Shown here: positions 19,246-56,536 of the stretch, piece after piece
Numbering within the stretch: position 1 is the first letter of the stretch
How the letters are laid out: every line of letters starts with the position of its first letter
UHGV virus genome: UHGV-1366603
Length of the DNA stretch: 64,000 bases
Direction: 5' to 3' (one strand)
Source of the DNA: a virus
The notes under the pieces: model-generated
The model's database searches: none
What the model was told of the DNA's origin: nothing
What the model saw: only the letters and a program-made list of their open reading frames with translations
Made by a program: the position numbers and the translations under genes

Positions 19246-22200
19246 TTAACCTGCACGTCTAACGTTAAGCTGTCGTGCTGGCTGTTCAACGGACATTTGT
19301 CGTGATGCTGAACCTGCTGGTGCCATAGGTTGAGCCGATGCGGTGTTTTGTACCGGTTGTGGACGTTGCTTAAGGATCGTGACAATCTCTTTGAGATAAC
19401 CCGCCGATTCTTTCGCAACAGCCAACTGCTGAACACTAATCGGATCGCCACTGCTAAGTGTAGGTCCGTTTTGTGCATCAGAAGTAACCGCAGGTGCCGG
19501 TTTACTCGTCGCTGCTGCGCGCTGCACAGCACCTTCTTTCACCTTCTCGACATCTTCTTCAGGCAACCCTTCATTTCTGGCTCCAGTTGCAACAGTCTCC
19601 CCAATCATAGAGGCGTCACCGCCTGCACTACTACCGCCAGGTGACGGTACTGCTGGACCACCACTGGTTGCAGCTTTGACGTTGTCCGCACCCATTGCAC
19701 CTTTCTCTGCTAACGCTTCATCACGACGCGCAGCATTGGACGCAGGCAAGTTATCCGTCGCTCCAGAAATTGATGGATCGTTAGCTGCCCCTGCTGCTAC
19801 CGCCGGAGAGGAGGCAACCGCAGGCGTTAGCCCTTTCACCATGTCTTTCGTTGAAGCTGGGTTAGCCGCAATTTCGTTTGTCGCCACAGCACCCATACGG
19901 CGGTTCAGTTCATTAATAACTTCACCAACAGTACGAATACGAACAATCTGCTTGCCGCGCATTTCGTAGAAGACCCCCTTATTACCACTAAGGATTTGAG
20001 GAGTAATGCCTTCTGCTTTGTCGGCTGGCATGTTCGGATTCTGCCGCCATGCATTAAGGAACTTCTTACCACCGCCTGGGCCCAAGAAGTGATACAGATA
20101 CGCAACAGCCGGAGGCGGTTCTACACCACCTAAGTCTTTCTGCGCCTGCATGATATTGTCACGAATAAACTGTACCCCGAGGATGGTATTTGCCCACGGG
20201 TCGTACTGGTTTACTTGCGGTATACCGTACCGACGAGAGTACCCTTTCATCATTCCAGACCACGTTTTGTCAATGAACTGGAACAACCCTGCTGCTGACG
20301 CACCTGGGTTCTTGACACCATATTTGAAATCAGATTCGGCTTTCGCCATCGCAATCGCGACCGCAGGCGGAACACCTAAGGTATTTGCGACATCCGCAAT
20401 CATCGCTTTAACGCCTTCTACGTTAGGTGACTTACCATCACCCAGTTTGCTGATTGGATACTTCTCAGCCAAGGTTTTGTAATCACCTTCTTTGACGTCC
20501 CCGAGTTTAATCCCGGATTGGCCCGTAGAGAACTTCGCGTAATTGCTAATACCCATCTCACCCACAACTTGAGACAGATCACCCGGTGTACCGTAAGACG
20601 ACCCACCGTTTGGCAAGTACCCATCCTTAGACGCTGTACCCCAATCAACAACACCTTTGAAACGATCTTTGGTGTCTTCGTCGGTTTGGTACATTCTCGT
20701 CGCACGATCGGCTTTCTGCCACTTCGCACGTTTACCTGCTGCGGGTGTAGACCGCAGGGTATCACGAACAGCCAGGTCAGGTTCTTTGGACAGTTCTTTC
20801 AGGTTGGCAAGTTCAGTAGCAACAGAACCTGCGTCGGTGTTTGCTTCTTCACCCAGTGGGTTGAACGGAATCTCCCACACGGACTGACGAATACCACCCT
20901 TCATGTTGTAAGCGCCACGAATCATCAACGCCAATTCGTACATGAACCCACCGGATACTTTCAGTTCGGTAGGGTCTGCTTGCGGAATGTAACGTTTCAG
21001 ACCAACGACGTAGGTCATATACGCCGGTAAGAAACGGTTGTAGAACCAGTTCTTACAACGCTCCTCTTTAGGACCACCTATCAGGTCAGGCGAGATAACC
21101 GCAATGGCTTCTTTCCAGTTGCCTTTATAGGTACAGTTCTTCACATCAATGTCTTTCAACACGTTCTTCTCTAACAGTGTGAAAAGATTACGCGTTGTTT
21201 GGTTGATAGTAACCGCACCGTAGGTTTTCCACCTGACCGATTCCAGGTCTTCCAAATCACTTTTCTTCGGTAAGGAATGCCAGTCAACTTGGATTTGAAC
21301 CTGTTCAGTTCCGTCTTCCCAACCTTCGACCTTCGCAACTTTCTCGTTACGTTCAGCATCTGCATTCGCCAGTACCTGACTGGTTTCAGCAACGGACGCA
21401 ACTTTGTGGCCTTCGACAGCATCACGCATACCTGAACGTTGTTTCCGTTTGTCGTCAGTACGCATGTTGATTGACCGCCACACACGTTCCTGTGCTTCGA
21501 CAACCTCTTCCCCTGACAAGAACTCTGCCGGAGTAAAGGTAACGAAATCCCACGCTTTAGAGAACCAACCCTGGTTAACTTTACGCGGGTCAGTCAATGA
21601 ACGGAATTCCGCAGAATCTTTACCCATCTTCATTTTGTTGTAGAGGGTAATCATATCCGCTTTCGACACTTTCTTCGGATCACCAACATCTGCCAAAGCG
21701 ATGTCGTTATCCATCGACTTCAGTGCTGAAATCCAGCGGAGGTAAATCGGTGCGAAACGTTGTAGCATAAACGCAGTAAATGCTAACATCTCACCACGTT
21801 CTTCCAAGTTTACACCGAACCCTTCTGCGAGTTTCTTCACGTCTTCGGAAGACAAGCCACGTAATTGTGCTTCACCCCCTTCGGTATACGAGACGTAAGG
21901 TTTCAAAGCGTCTTCTAAATAACGGGCTTTCATACCGTCTTCAGAAGACCACTGGTCGTAGTCACGGAAACCGTATTGTGCCAGACGCATATAGTCGAGG
22001 TACTGTGCTTTCACACGGGTAGCGCATTTATACGCCCAATAACCCAGACCAGCGGCAGTCGCACCGATCGCAATTGCAGGCCAACCCACCGCAGCCACTA
22101 CCGTAGATGCAGCCGAGGCTACCGCAGTCACTGCCGGTACCGCTAAACGTTGTACAGCAAACTTACCAACGTTCCACGCTGCTTTACCGAGGAACCCGGT

Positions 22201-25200
22201 AGGTTTAAAAATACCCCACTTCGCAACTTTGCCCAGTATCGAACCCACCGTACCTAAGATACTCACGATTGGTCCTACTAACGGTAAGTCTTTGAGGAAG
22301 TCCATCACCCCGCCTTTACGTCCTTTCTGCTCAGCGGTTTTCTTGGCTTTCTCTTCTTCCTTAGAACGTCTACGACGACGGAAGAATTGGAAGTAGTCAC
22401 GTTTTTCATCGTTGGCTGCCGGTTTGTTACGTTGTCCGAACTTACTGAACATCGTACGAATCAGGCCATCAGGTGCACCAGCACGTTCCGCAGAGTCACG
22501 CATGGTGTTAAACCAGGACATTTCCTGGAGGTTAACCATCCGGTTTAAACGTTCCAATAATGCTGAACCAACACTCTTCGCTTTCTGCTTACCTTTGTTG
22601 ATAACGCGTCCTGCGGTATCCGTTGCGGTTTCGAAATCCTCCTTCGCTGCGTTAAACACGCGTGTTGGAGAAACCTTACCACGAGCGTACAAGTGTTGAC
22701 GGTAAAACTCCGCAACGTCATCATCACGACCCGCTAAACGCGACTCCGCCCGATAACGTGTGGCAATATCGTAGCGTGGGTCACGGAAGCTATCTACTGT
22801 TTCACCAAAGCGCCCACGGAAACGGTCAAACCACCCTTTACCCGCAGCGCCCCAACGAGACAGTCTATCGCCAACGCCATGACGGAAACGTGAGAATCGG
22901 TCACGTTGTCTGCCTCGCCAATCCCGGAAATTCTGGAAGTAATCTTTAAATCCGTCGCGGAAATCCTTAACACGGTTAAGCATCCCTTTGATAGATTTCG
23001 AGCCAACGTTTTTCTCCAGTTGCTCCGTCCAGGATTCATCTTCAGGCTCACCGTCTAAACGACGGTTAAGGAGTTTATAGATACGAATCAGGATATGGTT
23101 GGTCTTACGGCCATTCGACCAAGAGAACATGCTGAAGCCACCGCCAGAACCACCTTCCTTACGATTCTGCCACCACCGGGTAAGCGGGTTGTCGGTCGCT
23201 AACTCTTTGAATTTCTCAAAGCCACGTTTTGCATTGTTCCACAAACGAGCAGGCATTCCGGTTACGCGAGAAATCATGCTTTGTAAACGTGTTTTCTCAC
23301 TCCCCTCAGGAATCTCATTAAGCCACTCACGCGCTTTCTCGAAGATAGACGCTGCTCTTGGCGAGATTAGACCAATCAGTTTCTTCGGTAAGTTAACAGC
23401 TTTGTTTACTGCTGTACCTGCTTTACCGGAGATATACTGGAACAGGGCCTGGAGTTTACCGCCTTTATAGAAGCGCAGTTTACCCGCAGCCGCTAAGTCT
23501 GCCGCTGCGAGAATCAAGTTCCCGGCTTCGTCAACAATATCACGACCCAGCTTAATGTCGTCTAACGAGCGGAGTTGTACCAGCTTGTTGGTTTTAGGGT
23601 CAGCCTGATAATACTCACCTGCCTCTAAACGGCTTCCTTGTAAAACAACATTGCCTTTCTCGTCGTAGATGTCCCGAACACCAAGAACACCTTTCCCGAA
23701 GGCGACCGCCGAATTCCAGCCTGTGGACAACGTACCAGTAACTAAACCTTTCAGTCGTTCAAAAACACCTGGACCGTCAGATGGCCCACCGGAGAATTTC
23801 CCACGAATAAAACTGCCCAGTGACTGTAAACGCCCTTTCCCTCTCAGGAACATGTTCTTCGCAAAACGACCCGCGCCCGTACCGGTGTCCCAAAGTACGC
23901 CCGCCCAACGACGGAACAGCCCACTTTCACCAAGCACGATGCGTTTACGCTTGCGTTTGTTACCGGTGCTACCTGCATCTTCAGAAGCGTCACCCTCGTC
24001 ACCGTCACGACCACCACCTAAGCTGGCCAGCAGGATACCTTCCTCATCCATGTTCTTAACATGTTTCAGAATTTCCTGCACGGTGTTGGATTCGGACTTA
24101 TTACGAATAGCATCAACGATTCTATCAAACTGTTGCTCTAACCCTGCGGTGGTATCAGGACGTTCGCTTAGCAGTTCAACAAAGTTGGTAGATTTTTCAC
24201 CGTAGAGGACAGCAGCAAGTTGTCGTGCCGACAGTCCACGGCCACCGCGACCGCCTTTACCTTTAACGGTGTCAATTGTCGACTCGTCACCGGTTACGGA
24301 GGCGTCTACCCCTAAACGACGTAAATAGTCACCTAGCGCAGAACCGTTTTTCAGTTTGCGCTGGATTTCTTGTTCACGCGTTAACGAACGACCGGAACGG
24401 GTTTTCCCCATGGCCAGGTCGTTATACAGCGTATACGGATCGTTAATGTCTTTATCTACATCAAACCGATCGTTCTTCGCATCGTACTTAAAGATACCTG
24501 CATCACGTAACGCATTCTCACCGTAGATAATTGAAGCTTCGTCTACCGTGTTTTGACGTGCACGAATTGTTGACTGAATGGCCGAAATCTTACCAGCGAT
24601 TTCGTTGCTAAGTTCGTGATGACCGCCTGTCAGTTCTGAAGACCGTGCTTCTAAGACCGCCTGAATCGCTTCTACCGCGTTTGCATTCATGTAACGATAC
24701 ATGTGCATCGGGTCTTTCAGCAGACTGCCTACGTCGAACGCCTTACCTTCAGACGCACGTGATTCGATATAGTCCGCCAGCGCTTGGCGAGTTTTCGAAT
24801 CCAGAGTTTTGTCTTTGTCGATAAAGTCAACGGTTTCGTTAATGTACTGCTGTAAACGCTTCCGCTGTTCATCGTTCGCAACCGCTTTACGGACACGGTT
24901 GCCGACAACTTTACGGTCAATCATCCCACGCGTGGTTAAATCGTACACCTGGTCGTGGTGTTCGCCGTACCCGCGACGAATAGATTTGTTAATCTCCGTC
25001 AGCAAAGTCGGGATGACTTCCGTGATGCTAAGATACGCTTTACGGTCGAACTTCGCAGCGGCGGATAACGCTTCTGCTGAACGTTCTTCTAAAGCTAATC
25101 CCTCACGACGCAGCGGTGTCACTAACCCCATCTCGTGCATTAAACGGAAGACGGTGGCCAGTGGGCCGTCTATCTCACCAGCAATCGCCGAGTTAGAGAT

Positions 25201-26382
25201 AGAAGATAAGTTACCGAACCCGTAGCGTGCCAACTGAAGCCGTTTCATGACTTCTGGGTTCTTTTCTAACTCACTGCGTGTCCAGTTCTGTAAACGTTCT
25301 ACCTGAGGTTGTAAGAACCGTTTTGCTAACCAACTACCGGCAAACCCTGCGACTTTACCTCGGGAATTCGTACGACGACGTTCTGGCGACAGTGTAGAAC
25401 TGTCTTCCATGCCGAAGTCGTCTTCCTGACTCATTGACAGAACTTGTTCTAATATCCCGCGTCCGTCGCTGAAGATATTCGAAATCTTTTTCTTCGCGTT
25501 CTCACGAATCTGATCAATAAAGTTATCCGCGTAACGCAAGGGGTTCATCCATTCGGCAGCTTTACGTTTTACGTTAGCCCAACGAACTTCAGAGAATTCC
25601 TCTTTTGCGTAGTCCGGCAACGCGGTGTTTTTAACAATCGCTTCAAGTGCCGGGGTGTTACGGCTAAACTCATCCTGTTTAAGTTTAGCAATATCTTGCA
25701 ACGCGAATAACGTACGGTATTGCAGCTCTAGCTGTTTACGCTGAACGTTAAGCATTACCCCGCGACTTAAACTGGTCGTCAGGTTAACGTCTTTCGCAAT
25801 ACCGATAACCGTCTGGAACAGCGCATCGGACTTCATGTCCTTGATGGTGTCACGAAGACGGTCTTCTACCATTCCTTCCTGAACTTCACGTTGTTGTTCA
25901 GGTGTTTGTGGCGTACCTGCAAAAACAGAGTCTAACTCACGATCCATTAACGCTTGTTTAGGATCGTAATTCCCGTAATCGTACTGGTCGCTTTTCGCCC
26001 ACTTGTCGATCTTACGGGTTACACTGTCAGGCAAATACCGTTTTAGGGTTGGGCCTAACTGACGAGCTTGTGCCTTCACCACACGGGAGGTCTTTTCAAT
26101 CTCGTCTTTCGTATGGGCCAGAATGTCTTGACCTGCGGCTTTGACGTTCTTATAACCTTCATAAGCGTCAGTCGCCGGTTTTGGCATTCCTTTTAAAATG
26201 ACCTGATCACGTTTATTTTCGGGCCAGATAGTCGACAACGCCGACTTACGGGCAGCACGAAATGTGTCCATGACCGGGTTACGCGATTGGTCTTGTTGAC
26301 GAGGGGGCTCATCAAAATCGTCCCAGTCGTCCATGTTATCAAGATCGATTTCATCGAAATCGTCTTTACCTTTTTTAGCCAT
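19246..26382 (-). CDS. giant virion-type protein with lytic transglycosylase (SLT) domain (2,378 aa)
   Basis: SLT signature AESDFKYG...AAGLFQFIDKTW and AYLYHFLGPGG near residue ~2000; acidic N-terminus; hydrophobic segments; Ala/Pro/Ser-rich C-terminal tail; size and domain placement recall phiKZ gp181. Confidence 0.7.
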   Translation of the reverse strand: MAKKGKDDFDEIDLDNMDDWDDFDEPPRQQDQSRNPVMDTFRAARKSALSTIWPENKRDQVILKGMPKPATDAYEGYKNVKAAGQDILAHTKDEIEKTSRVVKAQARQLGPTLKRYLPDSVTRKIDKWAKSDQYDYGNYDPKQALMDRELDSVFAGTPQTPEQQREVQEGMVEDRLRDTIKDMKSDALFQTVIGIAKDVNLTTSLSRGVMLNVQRKQLELQYRTLFALQDIAKLKQDEFSRNTPALEAIVKNTALPDYAKEEFSEVRWANVKRKAAEWMNPLRYADNFIDQIRENAKKKISNIFSDGRGILEQVLSMSQEDDFGMEDSSTLSPERRRTNSRGKVAGFAGSWLAKRFLQPQVERLQNWTRSELEKNPEVMKRLQLARYGFGNLSSISNSAIAGEIDGPLATVFRLMHEMGLVTPLRREGLALEERSAEALSAAAKFDRKAYLSITEVIPTLLTEINKSIRRGYGEHHDQVYDLTTRGMIDRKVVGNRVRKAVANDEQRKRLQQYINETVDFIDKDKTLDSKTRQALADYIESRASEGKAFDVGSLLKDPMHMYRYMNANAVEAIQAVLEARSSELTGGHHELSNEIAGKISAIQSTIRARQNTVDEASIIYGENALRDAGIFKYDAKNDRFDVDKDINDPYTLYNDLAMGKTRSGRSLTREQEIQRKLKNGSALGDYLRRLGVDASVTGDESTIDTVKGKGGRGGRGLSARQLAAVLYGEKSTNFVELLSERPDTTAGLEQQFDRIVDAIRNKSESNTVQEILKHVKNMDEEGILLASLGGGRDGDEGDASEDAGSTGNKRKRKRIVLGESGLFRRWAGVLWDTGTGAGRFAKNMFLRGKGRLQSLGSFIRGKFSGGPSDGPGVFERLKGLVTGTLSTGWNSAVAFGKGVLGVRDIYDEKGNVVLQGSRLEAGEYYQADPKTNKLVQLRSLDDIKLGRDIVDEAGNLILAAADLAAAGKLRFYKGGKLQALFQYISGKAGTAVNKAVNLPKKLIGLISPRAASIFEKAREWLNEIPEGSEKTRLQSMISRVTGMPARLWNNAKRGFEKFKELATDNPLTRWWQNRKEGGSGGGFSMFSWSNGRKTNHILIRIYKLLNRRLDGEPEDESWTEQLEKNVGSKSIKGMLNRVKDFRDGFKDYFQNFRDWRGRQRDRFSRFRHGVGDRLSRWGAAGKGWFDRFRGRFGETVDSFRDPRYDIATRYRAESRLAGRDDDVAEFYRQHLYARGKVSPTRVFNAAKEDFETATDTAGRVINKGKQKAKSVGSALLERLNRMVNLQEMSWFNTMRDSAERAGAPDGLIRTMFSKFGQRNKPAANDEKRDYFQFFRRRRRSKEEEKAKKTAEQKGRKGGVMDFLKDLPLVGPIVSILGTVGSILGKVAKWGIFKPTGFLGKAAWNVGKFAVQRLAVPAVTAVASAASTVVAAVGWPAIAIGATAAGLGYWAYKCATRVKAQYLDYMRLAQYGFRDYDQWSSEDGMKARYLEDALKPYVSYTEGGEAQLRGLSSEDVKKLAEGFGVNLEERGEMLAFTAFMLQRFAPIYLRWISALKSMDNDIALADVGDPKKVSKADMITLYNKMKMGKDSAEFRSLTDPRKVNQGWFSKAWDFVTFTPAEFLSGEEVVEAQERVWRSINMRTDDKRKQRSGMRDAVEGHKVASVAETSQVLANADAERNEKVAKVEGWEDGTEQVQIQVDWHSLPKKSDLEDLESVRWKTYGAVTINQTTRNLFTLLEKNVLKDIDVKNCTYKGNWKEAIAVISPDLIGGPKEERCKNWFYNRFLPAYMTYVVGLKRYIPQADPTELKVSGGFMYELALMIRGAYNMKGGIRQSVWEIPFNPLGEEANTDAGSVATELANLKELSKEPDLAVRDTLRSTPAAGKRAKWQKADRATRMYQTDEDTKDRFKGVVDWGTASKDGYLPNGGSSYGTPGDLSQVVGEMGISNYAKFSTGQSGIKLGDVKEGDYKTLAEKYPISKLGDGKSPNVEGVKAMIADVANTLGVPPAVAIAMAKAESDFKYGVKNPGASAAGLFQFIDKTWSGMMKGYSRRYGIPQVNQYDPWANTILGVQFIRDNIMQAQKDLGGVEPPPAVAYLYHFLGPGGGKKFLNAWRQNPNMPADKAEGITPQILSGNKGVFYEMRGKQIVRIRTVGEVINELNRRMGAVATNEIAANPASTKDMVKGLTPAVASSPAVAAGAANDPSISGATDNLPASNAARRDEALAEKGAMGADNVKAATSGGPAVPSPGGSSAGGDASMIGETVATGARNEGLPEEDVEKVKEGAVQRAAATSKPAPAVTSDAQNGPTLSSGDPISVQQLAVAKESAGYLKEIVTILKQRPQPVQNTASAQPMAPAGSASRQMSVEQPARQLNVRRAG

Positions 26383-53760: not shown

Positions 53761-54260
53761 GCTTGGTTTTTTAAATACTCTCGAGAGACCTCAAGTCTCT
53801 CGGATCGATCTTAAAAATTTAACTCTCTCAAAAACCTGATCTCAAGATCTCTTCCTTATACGCGTGTGCGTGCGCACACGTATAGTATAATATATTTATT
53901 TATAAATATATTATTCCTTTAGGATCAAAATAATAATACCTTTAGGTATTATTTAATTATATATTTTAATATATATTTATTTTAATAAATATAAATATAT
54001 TAAATAAATATATTAATAATATAATTATTATATATAATATATATTATATATAAATATATATAAAACGCGCGCGATCCTTATTATGAGATCTGATCTCGCT
54101 CTGACCCCCAGTGAGGGGGTGGGGATCGGTGAGCGGTATTTTCCGGAAAAACCGAAAATCGTACCCGGGGTAATTCGCCAGGGTAAAATCCCCACCTGGG
54201 GGATCGGGTAGGGGGTACCCTTCCGGGGGAGATCCTGAACACCTGACCAGGGGGTAAAAC
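53761..54260. other. gene-free AT-rich tract flanked by a GATC cluster, palindromes and G/C tracts; candidate replication origin or packaging/terminal region
   Basis: About 180 bp of near-pure A/T (53881-54060); 11 GATC sites counted in ~440 bp; inverted repeats such as GTGTGCG-TG-CGCACAC and AATAATACC-TTT-AGGTATTATT. Confidence 0.45.
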
Positions 54261-54299
54261 CCCATTCCCCTTTTTCGAACGTTAAAACCCTATGGTATG

Positions 54300-54912
54300 T
54301 TCGGAGGATTTGCGTGGGGTTGATTTACAACCACGAAGATTTTTCGGAGTTCAGGTATTACTGCTCACAGCTCAACACGATTACTGTCTGCGATGATTCA
54401 GCAGAGCTCGAACCCCCTGGTTGGTTATTGGCCAGGGGTGTTTTTTCAAGTGCATGGATTTTGGTTCACCGTGTACTGGGAAAAACAAAACGTTCGGCCT
54501 AACACTGGCGATTTGTTTTACTATGGGGTTTCCGTGACTTCGGATAAAAACCTCAGGGGTTGGTAAACCCCACGAATTCAGGTGCTCGGTACCGTTCCCG
54601 CGACTTACGAAGTTTGGGGAAAGCCGCGCTATCAGCGACGCGTGGCCGACATGAGAAAATCCGAGTGAACCGTGGCAGCCTCTGGGGGCGACGTTGGCGA
54701 GAGGTCCGTAGAACTTACCTGCGGGCAGCCGACGGTGGGATGCGTCCCCAGAGGTGCGGCCAGAATCCGAATTACGACGTTGCGTCGAAACAACCCTGCT
54801 CCAGGTAGCGCTGGCAGTGTGATGTCCTCTAGCTTGACGGCTCGCAAAGACGAGAGGGGTGCGTACTCCCGTTGAGAAACGCCGGTACGCAGCTGAATTA
54901 ATTTTTTACGGA
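54300..54912 (+). ncRNA. candidate structured non-coding RNA region (unclassified)
   Basis: GC-rich segment unlike flanking DNA; many nested inverted repeats; internal terminator-like hairpin at 54413-54446; only Arg-rich or TTG/GTG-start ORFs. Confidence 0.3.
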
Positions 54913-54955
54913 ATTTCCTGTTGGTGTGACACAAACCACGGCAGGAGATTTTAAT

Positions 54956-55288
54956 ATGGATTCCAAAGACGTTCCGAACATCGGTTCGAATGTCCCGTAC
55001 CGACTCGATGAATTGGGTAGGCTGCTAAAGGCACCCGAGAATTGGGGTTGTTATGATTCGTCGCTGCTAAACTGCATCGAGACAGTGACGGTGAACCATT
55101 GGCGAAACACAGAGCTTGTTACGGTTTGTGTTAAACTCACCGGTGGTCAGTTGGTTACTCACACCCCGTCTCCCAAGGAGCCGCACGTGGGTTATCGCCC
55201 TTACCTGTTCTCAGCGGTTCAGAAATGCTTACACAAAGCTATCATGAAATACGCCGAGCAATGCATGGCTACGTTCATCATGGATTGA
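54956..55288 (+). CDS. hypothetical protein (110 aa)
   Basis: ATG 54956 with AGGAGA RBS; upstream of the HslV-like gene. Confidence 0.5.
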   Translation: MDSKDVPNIGSNVPYRLDELGRLLKAPENWGCYDSSLLNCIETVTVNHWRNTELVTVCVKLTGGQLVTHTPSPKEPHVGYRPYLFSAVQKCLHKAIMKYAEQCMATFIMD

Positions 55289-55299
55289 GGTTCGCCTGA

Positions 55300-55800
55300 A
55301 TGACTACGATTGTTTTTGACGGAAAGACGTTAGCTTGCGATGGCCAAGTCACCGTGGAAGAGCGTAGTGCTGCCACGCAATACCGTAAGATTCACACGCC
55401 GCCTGAGGGTACGACGTGGAAGCTTTTGGGTGAAGACGTGAAAGCAATTGGTTTGGCAGGTGATGTCGCCGCATTGCAATCCGTGCGTCAAGAACTCACG
55501 CTTGAACGTTTCGGCGGTATCGAACGGGGTGGGGTTCGTTTTGAAACGACGTATCCCGAACAGATTGAATTTATCGTACTTGCTGTTTTGACAGACGGGC
55601 GCGTTATCGACGCCTCGAAGTGCAAAGACAACAAATACGCCAGTTACGTGTTTGTAGAACCGCCGTATGCGATAGGCTCAGGTGCTCACTATGCCCTGGG
55701 TGCATTAGGCGCAGGCGTTGACGCCCCCACTGCGGTGGAAGTGGCGAAACGTTATGACCTGTACAGCGGCGGTCAGACGCAAACGCTTAAGCTGTTTTGA
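55300..55800 (+). CDS. HslV-like (proteasome beta-type, Ntn-hydrolase) peptidase
   Basis: N-terminus MTTIVFDGK...ACDGQVT parallels E. coli HslV MTTIVSVRR...AGDGQAT; later YAIGSGAHYALGA parallels IAIGSGGPYAQAA; GAGG RBS. Confidence 0.65.
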   Translation: MTTIVFDGKTLACDGQVTVEERSAATQYRKIHTPPEGTTWKLLGEDVKAIGLAGDVAALQSVRQELTLERFGGIERGGVRFETTYPEQIEFIVLAVLTDGRVIDASKCKDNKYASYVFVEPPYAIGSGAHYALGALGAGVDAPTAVEVAKRYDLYSGGQTQTLKLF

Positions 55801-55809
55801 AGTATTTAG

Positions 55810-55882
55810 ACCATTGAAGTTAGAGGAATTAACACCCGACTAATAATCGGTTATTTCGCAGGTTCGAATCCTGCCATTGGTC
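55810..55882 (+). tRNA. tRNA-like gene, anticodon uncertain
   Basis: Canonical T-arm GCAGG-TTCGAAT-CCTGC; acceptor stem with one mismatch; D-stem GTTA/TAAC; 73 nt; anticodon loop register ambiguous. Confidence 0.4.
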
Positions 55883-55989
55883 GCCCAGATTAGAACAATC
55901 GAACAAGAGTTACAAACTCGTCAGCCTTCAACTGAGCGTCGGTTGTTCTGATAACTTCTGCTCTTGCTCACGGGTAGAAAGCTCCTTAA

Positions 55990-56110
55990 AAACGTGTAAA
56001 CACCTACCGATTAAGTTCGGACTTACGTTAGGGTCGTGAGACCCTGGTGGTTAGACCACCTAAACGGTTGTACGGTGGGAGGATAACACCTCCCACCTGC
56101 ACCTACCAAG
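55990..56110 (+). other. cluster of short stable hairpins, possible small RNA or processing signals
   Basis: TAAGT-TCGG-ACTTA, GGGTC-GTGA-GACCC, GGTGG-TTAGA-CCACC, GGTGGGAGG-ATAACA-CCTCCCACC in series. Confidence 0.3.
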
Positions 56111-56261
56111 AATTTAATTATTGGGTATTTCCCCTAAGTGTAACGTGAATACCCTGTAATGTGAATTGAGAGTTACGTGTTAACTCGACGGTACTGGTCG
56201 TTGGTCACCTGTAAACCTTCATCGTCCCATGTCATGCTGTGTTTGACCAGTACCGAACTTT

Positions 56262-56333
56262 GTCGCTAAGCCTGGTGACGTGGCTACACACCGAGGCTGG
56301 GGCTCGACACCCGTTAGCGACACCCTTTTTTGC
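56262..56333 (+). terminator. terminator-like structure ending the tRNA/hairpin region
   Basis: GTCGCTAA...TTAGCGAC outer stem enclosing a structured insert, followed by ACCCTTTTTTG. Confidence 0.35.
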
Positions 56334-56394
56334 GTTATTGTCAGTATTCTGAAGCTGTGTTCAGTGACAATAGCGTTTTTTATTCGCGTTGGCG

Positions 56395-56450
56395 TTTGTA
56401 CCATTGCTGCTCTTGCTGTCATTGCTGCCACTGCCTGCTGCGCCTCAACA
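56395..56450 (+). repeat. imperfect 9-bp tandem repeat (TTGCTG core, about 4 copies)
   Basis: ATTGCTGCT / CTTGCTGTC / ATTGCTGCC / ACTGCCTGCTG read directly. Confidence 0.4.
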
Positions 56451-56536
56451 GACGTCAACGCGACCCATTAACCCACACGTCGGGGTATAGCGACGTACAA
56501 CAGAACGAGTAGTAGTAACAGAACGAGGCAACAGAA

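Follow-up and report, generated by a model that had tools for sequence, protein, structure and literature searches.

We report that the 166-aa protein encoded beside a tRNA gene in the window (the whole 64,000-nucleotide stretch of viral DNA that was analyzed) is a divergent further member of a phage protein family that has already been described and annotated. This family, PPH, was described by Fuchs, Alva and Lupas in 2021 (PMC8665760) as phage and prophage proteins of about 140 aa that have neither helix H2 nor a propeptide, and its presence beyond Proteobacteria was reported as well. We consider it quite likely that the window protein (also called PPH below) is, as predicted, a catalytically competent Ntn hydrolase of this family. 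A sequence-only reading of the same DNA had put forward an orphan HslV-like peptidase; existing annotation already places orthologs in the 'peptidase HslV family', and that HslU is missing is already in print, having been noted beside the 'HslV' of the Salmonella jumbo phage pSal-SNUABM-04 (PMC7823757). The observation of PPH itself repeats existing annotation and publication, and its value lies in the natural variants.

No other proteasome-type enzyme family is mainly viral, and more than 7,000 50%-identity clusters of PPH were found; to these the window adds a divergent member, clearly functional as judged by selection, from a jumbo phage associated with Salmonella/E. coli. The natural genetics of the locus comprise allelic mosaicism, a hypervariable loop at the position of H2, and deletion of the catalytic half in a 97%-identical phage. 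Because such natural variants were found, the family is tractable for knock-out and complementation.

Family assignment and predicted active site

Searched as a single sequence, PPH had no Pfam match at E ≤ 1 (PF00227, Proteasome, included), only noise in the PDB by phmmer (E > 0.3), and no megablast match among phages; PADLOC also had no match at the PPH locus. Against the NCBIfam HslV models TIGR03692 and NF003964, PPH scored 12.8 bits, the cut-offs being 157.75 and 137. PHROG 1040 (phrog_1040, 'peptidase HslV family') matched PPH with E = 1.9e-35. By tblastn, 67 phage records were retrieved at E ≤ 1e-3, every one at less than 40% identity, and 457 at E ≤ 10, of which 370 had at least 80% query coverage. 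These matches ranged over jumbo phages, rV5-like myoviruses, Jersey-like siphoviruses, Jedunavirus and others, and many were already labelled 'peptidase HslV family' or 'putative proteasome component'. PPH was also present in lambdoid phages, and its metagenomic contexts were phage-like.

An exhaustive profile search of 1.84 billion cluster representatives yielded, at E ≤ 1e-10, 7,378 proteins (50%-identity clusters), which with few exceptions were 135–150 aa long and aligned from the first residue. The median length of the retrieved proteins was 144 aa, and 147 of 159 started with MTT. When an 84-sequence profile was compared with the PDB, only HslV, BPH and 20S beta subunits were matched, over the full length and with E-values from 1.2e-11 (HslV, the best match) to about 1e-8; the 20S beta matches were no better than those to HslV or BPH. 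Pentatricopeptide-repeat designs, which topped the same comparison with an 8-sequence profile but without a significant single stretch, were rejected as spurious and were gone with the 84-sequence profile. The AlphaFold2 model of PPH (pLDDT 86, pTM 0.85) matched HslV, Anbu and 20S beta in Foldseek. Profile search and structure prediction therefore agree with an Ntn hydrolase fold, which bears out the earlier proposal of a proteasome- or HslV-type protein.

The ORF was found at its proposed position with the sequence quoted for it, and the codon immediately 5′ of its ATG is an in-frame TGA; PPH thus has no propeptide and starts with Met-Thr-Thr. We aligned 150 family representatives (≤50% mutual identity) together with E. 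coli HslV in MAFFT, and the conservation counts in Table 1 are out of these 151 sequences. The matches to E. coli HslV that had been drawn by eye held in this alignment (MTTIV; A-x-D-G-Q-x-T; AIGSG..YA..A), and the E-values for PHROG 1040 and for the 84-sequence profile put the resemblance far beyond chance. The sequence-only reading had named loss of the N-terminal Thr and of Gly-Ser-Gly in homologs as grounds against its claim; both were kept across homologs, and the claim of HslV-like homology therefore stands. The motif at residues 153–157 resembles what we take to be the Asp166/Ser169/Gly170 pattern of 20S beta subunits.

Values of dN/dS for PPH were 0.12–0.19 overall, 0.02–0.10 in the catalytic core, and 0.20–0.36 in codons 56–92, which span H1 and the loop replacing H2. 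By this measure, PPH is under purifying selection, and the gene is real and functional.

Table 1. Coordinates of the PPH locus in the window and of HslU-like genes in other contigs (given as contig:positions).
Feature	Position	Strand	Details
PPH-family proteasome-like Ntn hydrolase gene (predicted)	55300..55800	+	ATG start, 166 aa plus stop
Upstream ORF, 110 aa	54956..55288	+	Lineage-restricted ORFan; not a conserved partner
tRNA gene	55809..55885	+	ARAGORN: Ile(AAU); Rfam tRNA 40.1 bits
Thr2 codon, predicted N-terminal nucleophile (= Thr1 of HslV/20S beta)	55303..55305	+	T 149/151, S 2
Asp14 codon (= Asp17, T1 triad)	55339..55341	+	D 150/151
Lys30 codon (= Lys33, triad)	55387..55389	+	K 151/151; invariant in the 84-sequence alignment
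Insertion 1, residues 35–47, extra beta-hairpin of the ~160-aa 'long' PPH subgroup (enterobacterial phages)	55402..55440	+	
Gly51-Leu-Ala-Gly54 (= HslV Gly45..Gly48), oxyanion-hole/substrate-strand region	55450..55461	+	G51 120/151 (A 25), G54 151/151
Helix H1 and hypervariable loop (codons 56–92) in place of HslV/20S beta helix H2	55465..55575	+	Model, profile gap, dN/dS
Gly126-Ser127-Gly128 (= HslV Gly123-Ser124-Gly125)	55675..55683	+	G 151/151; S 138, T 10; G 151/151
Asp153-x-x-Ser156-Gly157 motif	55756..55770	+	D 149/151; S/T 147/151; G 139/151
Jumbo-phage HslU-like AAA+, ~570–586 aa	L011:3001-4761, L012:6001-7761, L014:8001-9746, L009:1353-3062		

The locus and its relatives in jumbo phages

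By nucleotide comparison, the window is part of an SPN3US/phiEaH2-like jumbo phage. The terminase/structural block at 44–50 kb showed 73–74% nucleotide identity, over its full length, to phiEaH2, Stratton, SPAsTU and SPN3US, which are jumbo phages of Erwinia and Salmonella. SPN3US gp1 is the syntenic ortholog of PPH, with a tRNA gene next to it, and phiEaH2 gp185 is the syntenic gene; RefSeq annotates both as 'peptidase HslV family'. Near-identical copies of the window's phage were found in a Salmonella Chester assembly (GCA_054506385.1; L013, 96–97.5% nucleotide identity) and in two Logan contigs (L003, 95%; L016, 97%), and a contig from an E. coli assembly (L004) represents a more distant relative (83%).

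The layout proposed earlier, a two-gene operon beside a tRNA region, was upheld in part. The upstream 110-aa gene is real, lies on the same strand and has AGGAG 8 nt 5′ of its ATG, and its stop is separated from the PPH start by an 11-nt gap. A tRNA gene begins 8 nt past the PPH stop, with no terminator-like site found between the two, and is probably co-transcribed with PPH; adjacency to a tRNA was thus correct, but the region consists of this single tRNA. The anticodon that ARAGORN reads, AAU, is unusual. In relatives (L003, L004, L016, SPN3US and phiEaH2), its place is taken by a tRNA-Trp(CCA) that is unrelated to it, so the tRNA was swapped together with the neighboring genes.

As a conserved pairing, the operon did not hold up. 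The 110-aa product had no family match in Pfam, PHROG, NCBIfam or PADLOC and no tblastn match in 50,697 phage records, and it formed three clusters only among 5.8 billion proteins. The L003 version of the gene is 40% identical, L004 and L016 have an unrelated 105-aa gene in its slot, and SPN3US and phiEaH2 have neither of the two. Because it is swapped for an unrelated gene in relatives, the upstream gene is not a conserved partner of PPH. In the close relatives P0280 and P0281, TGG stands where the window has TGA (window 55286–55303), and the upstream ORF is five codons longer, its end overlapping the start of PPH in the sequence ATGA; the window version stops 11 nt earlier.

As alignments among these relatives indicate, the locus is a recombination-prone accessory cassette. 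Between L003 (7733–8698) and the window (55050–55890), nucleotide identity was 95% in the flanks and 76% across PPH (dS about 1.06), and alignment of the two failed in the 3′ portion of the upstream gene and in the tRNA; this sharp mosaic boundary points to allelic replacement by recombination. In L016 (3001–3480, equivalent to window 54956–55800), the alternative upstream gene of 105 aa runs in frame into PPH codons 98–166, the fusion junction lying at the microhomology CAGACGG and the flanks being 96–97.7% identical to the window. The fusion removes the N-terminal 97 codons, and with them Thr1, the Asp, the Lys and the oxyanion glycines, and constitutes a natural PPH knock-out. Since L016 has lost the catalytic N-terminal half, at least one natural lineage can dispense with PPH.

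The surroundings of the cassette had features of their own. ORF-poor stretches lie on both sides (54066–54955 and 55886–56536), and the upstream one contains a strong terminator-like hairpin at 54414–54438 plus a T-run; a segment of 60% GC lies at 54,560–54,880. A structured leader RNA at 54,540–54,900 was considered and rejected (fold z-scores −1.63 and +0.36; Rfam found the tRNA only). At 53861–54065 there is a block of about 190 bp of almost pure A/T (GC 13.5% over 53,900–54,099) with many overlapping palindromes, and a GC palindrome (acgcgtgtgcgtgcgcacacgt) lies 5′ of the block. The Salmonella Chester contig L013 stops within it (window 54,062), and the SPN3US genome numbering begins at the equivalent point. 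As candidate roles for the block we consider an origin, an unwinding element, a cluster of early promoters and a packaging-related site. Elsewhere in the window, the ORF table lists a minus-strand ORF at 19246–26382 that is very long (2,378 aa).

Proposed mode of action and alternatives

With moderate confidence, we favor a reading in which PPH is a minimal proteasome-beta/HslV-like N-terminal-threonine hydrolase, a dispensable accessory gene of many tailed phages, which works independently of an unfoldase. The reading starts from the fold, the conserved catalytic residues, the absence of a propeptide and of H2, purifying selection and dispensability, and the steps that follow are built upon these. 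Met1 would be removed by the host methionine aminopeptidase, which is feasible because Thr is permissive as second residue, and Thr2 would be exposed as the nucleophile. Asp14 and Lys30 would complete a T1-type triad with Thr2, whereas Gly51/Gly54, Ser127 and Asp153/Ser156 are predicted to shape the oxyanion hole and to hold the Thr amino group; an extended peptide substrate may be bound by Thr18 and the Gly51–Gly54 strand. In HslV and 20S beta subunits, helix H2 (the H1/H2 face) meets HslU or the alpha ring. Because a fast-evolving loop replaces H2 in PPH, the enzyme would need no dedicated unfoldase and, by analogy with the HslUV and 20S structures, canonical unfoldase docking is probably absent owing to the remodelled H1/H2 face. 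The enzyme would act in the cytoplasm of the infected cell, as a peptidase or, less likely, a transpeptidase; it may target peptides, unstructured termini or a single specific protein of host or phage, with the choice presumably set by the variable loop and the subgroup-specific hairpins.

Several other readings have to be weighed against this unfoldase-independent hydrolase. PPH might be a stand-alone, likewise unfoldase-independent phage protease whose loop and hairpins recognize a host protein, for example a defence or stress-response factor, and the locus a counter-defence or host-takeover cassette in an arms race. We see this as possible but rather unlikely; it fits the intact catalytic center, the variable loop, the mosaic alleles, the dispensability and the accessory position. 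The chemistry also deserves caution. BPH and Anbu are not known to show convincing protease activity in vitro (work of Fuchs, Lupas and Martin), and connectase is a ligase; the label 'peptidase' is therefore not guaranteed. Our literature search found no measured activity or tested function for any PPH or phage HslV-like protein. That PPH is a sequence-specific, connectase-like transpeptidase or ligase, or an amidase on a non-protein substrate, and not a degradative protease, appears quite unlikely to us.

Two further readings would supply PPH with an unfoldase. PPH may capture the host HslU (ClpY), either to form a hybrid ATP-dependent protease directed at host or defence proteins or to titrate HslU from the host HslV. 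HslV and BPH are the closest solved relatives, the catalytic apparatus of PPH is intact, and most PPH phages found here infect Enterobacteria, which possess HslUV. Against such capture, which we judge unlikely, PPH has no helix H2, the NCBIfam HslV models are missed by more than 120 bits, and the column of HslV Lys28, presumably a contact for the HslU C-terminus, is unconserved in PPH, with a consensus of Q, gap or S. Moreover, PPH also occurs in lineages beyond Proteobacteria (Fuchs et al., PMC8665760). The other candidate, a phage-encoded HslU-like AAA+ located outside the window with PPH as its proteolytic partner, has to be assessed from related genomes. Within the 64-kb window, the earlier statement that no HslU-type AAA+ partner is visible was confirmed: no AAA+ or Walker-A protein was found there, the only loose motif being in a 187-aa ORF, and tblastn with a phage HslU-like protein gave no match. 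The term 'orphan' suits the window and the majority of PPH phages, but not several related jumbo phages, which have an HslU-like AAA+ elsewhere in the genome. Genes of this kind (~580 aa, PF07724) are present in many jumbo relatives that carry PPH, namely SPAsTU, MET_P1_082_240, pEa_SNUABM_4/29, Caitlin and pSal-SNUABM-04, which speaks for a partnership. However, the two genes are about 100–110 kb apart in genomes with both, the syntenic site of SPN3US, which does have PPH, is without an HslU-like gene, and between 97%-identical SPN3US-like genomes the HslU-like gene is a presence/absence polymorphism (indel). Counts of records by host are also unequal: 23 Erwinia-phage records match PPH versus 46 for the HslU-like gene, which RAY-type phages carry, whereas PPH-like matches come from at least 150 records of Escherichia phages, a group that does not rank as a main carrier of the HslU-like gene. 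Counting Escherichia and Salmonella phages together, hundreds of records had a PPH-like match and no HslU-like gene. On these records, the distribution of PPH is independent of that of the phage HslU-like gene. The phage ATPases, furthermore, lack the C-terminal ...RYIL tail by which bacterial HslU docks to HslV, and their gene adjoins a Peptidase_S80-like gene, usually on the 3′ side and of 156–161 aa; the proteolytic partner of the phage ATPase, if any, may be this S80-like protein rather than PPH. In the contig from the near relative L004 (222,841 bp, DAJWWN010000001.1), no HslU-like protein was found, and a partnership of PPH with a phage HslU is, in our estimate, very unlikely. Across six different genomic contexts, no conserved PPH neighbor was found. 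PPH generally seems to work without a dedicated phage unfoldase, and for this phage the inspection covered the window. Erwinia phage RAY gp116, assigned to the 'HslVU protease family' and to the phage nucleus, was considered as a PPH ortholog and rejected; the record is a 569-aa HslU-like ATPase, and its nuclear localization is therefore not transferable to PPH.

The sequence-only reading had also listed virion maturation among the possible roles. PPH is a predicted phage peptidase with terminase and structural genes a few kb upstream, but its locus, next to a tRNA gene, is variable and non-structural, its catalytic half is deleted in a 97%-identical phage, and the positions that the family occupies in small siphoviruses, lambdoid phages and myoviruses are unrelated. 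Relatives also have Peptidase_S80 matches, and in phiKZ/SPN3US-type phages the prohead protease belongs to the S80 family. The accessory character of the locus and the dispensability of PPH therefore disfavor this role, and a prohead or virion maturation protease seems extremely improbable. It is highly improbable as well that PPH is a catalytically irrelevant decoy, a structural protein or a decaying gene. Dispensability in at least one lineage and hypervariability of the locus would agree with this, but thousands of diverged clusters are nearly uniform at all catalytic positions, and the low dN/dS of the catalytic core argues to the contrary.

Comparison with HslV and other proteasome-like systems

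PPH is not a true HslV, as the earlier label might imply: it misses the NCBIfam cut-offs, has no Pfam match and lacks helix H2. HslV (ClpQ, family T1B) has HslU as its partner, whereas PPH has neither H2 nor an hslU neighbor; typical PPH members are 20–35 residues shorter, and at the position of C-I-Y-T-N-H in E. coli HslV they carry the motif D-x-x-S/T-G-G. In the model, helices were present only at residues 56–66, 129–137 and 142–152, with none between 67 and 128, and mean pLDDT was 63–75 for residues 61–90, the loop at the position of helix H2. At H2, alignments of the profile with HslV were interrupted by a gap of some 20 residues. The chain ends 14 residues past the last helix of the model, and there is no C-terminal S12/H5. 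BPH, in contrast to PPH, is a chromosomal bacterial gene product of 185–200 aa that has H2; PMC5777263 describes heptameric double rings for it. A 20S proteasome beta subunit was rejected because no propeptide is possible and no alpha-like gene lies nearby. Connectase was likewise set aside, as a connectase as closest relative together with loss of both H1 and H2 was not what we found.

Judged by the published family features, in sequence and in the model, the window protein fits the PPH family. The PPH proteins of Fuchs et al. (2021) and the window protein share a compact proteasome-like Ntn fold with equivalents of Thr1, Asp17, Lys33 and Gly47, and both lack a propeptide, helix H2 and the C-terminal S12/H5. 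Published PPH is nearest to BPH and HslV (group I) and occurs in Caudoviricetes and prophages. The window protein is longer, with 166 aa versus about 140, owing to two hairpin insertions (residues 35–47 and 110–114) and a longer loop at the H2 position. The columns of the first insertion, with modelled strands 40–42/45–55, were gapped in more than 95% of the 140-aa family members. Both long-subgroup insertions are common to SPN3US gp1, phiEaH2 gp185, Klebsiella IME346 gp23 and E. coli phage Dewey, and Jedunavirus homologs also carry them.

The jumbo-phage proteins SPN3US gp1 and phiEaH2 gp185 offer the closest parallel in gene order. Like PPH in the window, they are encoded 5–6 kb downstream of terminase, as the first gene past a long non-coding stretch and with a tRNA gene next. 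The tRNA that follows is Trp(CCA) in both phages, versus an unrelated Ile(AAU)-like one in the window, and neither has a homolog of the window's upstream 110-aa gene. SPN3US gp1 and phiEaH2 gp185 have the same long-subgroup architecture as the window PPH, yet their amino acid identity to it is only 34–35%.
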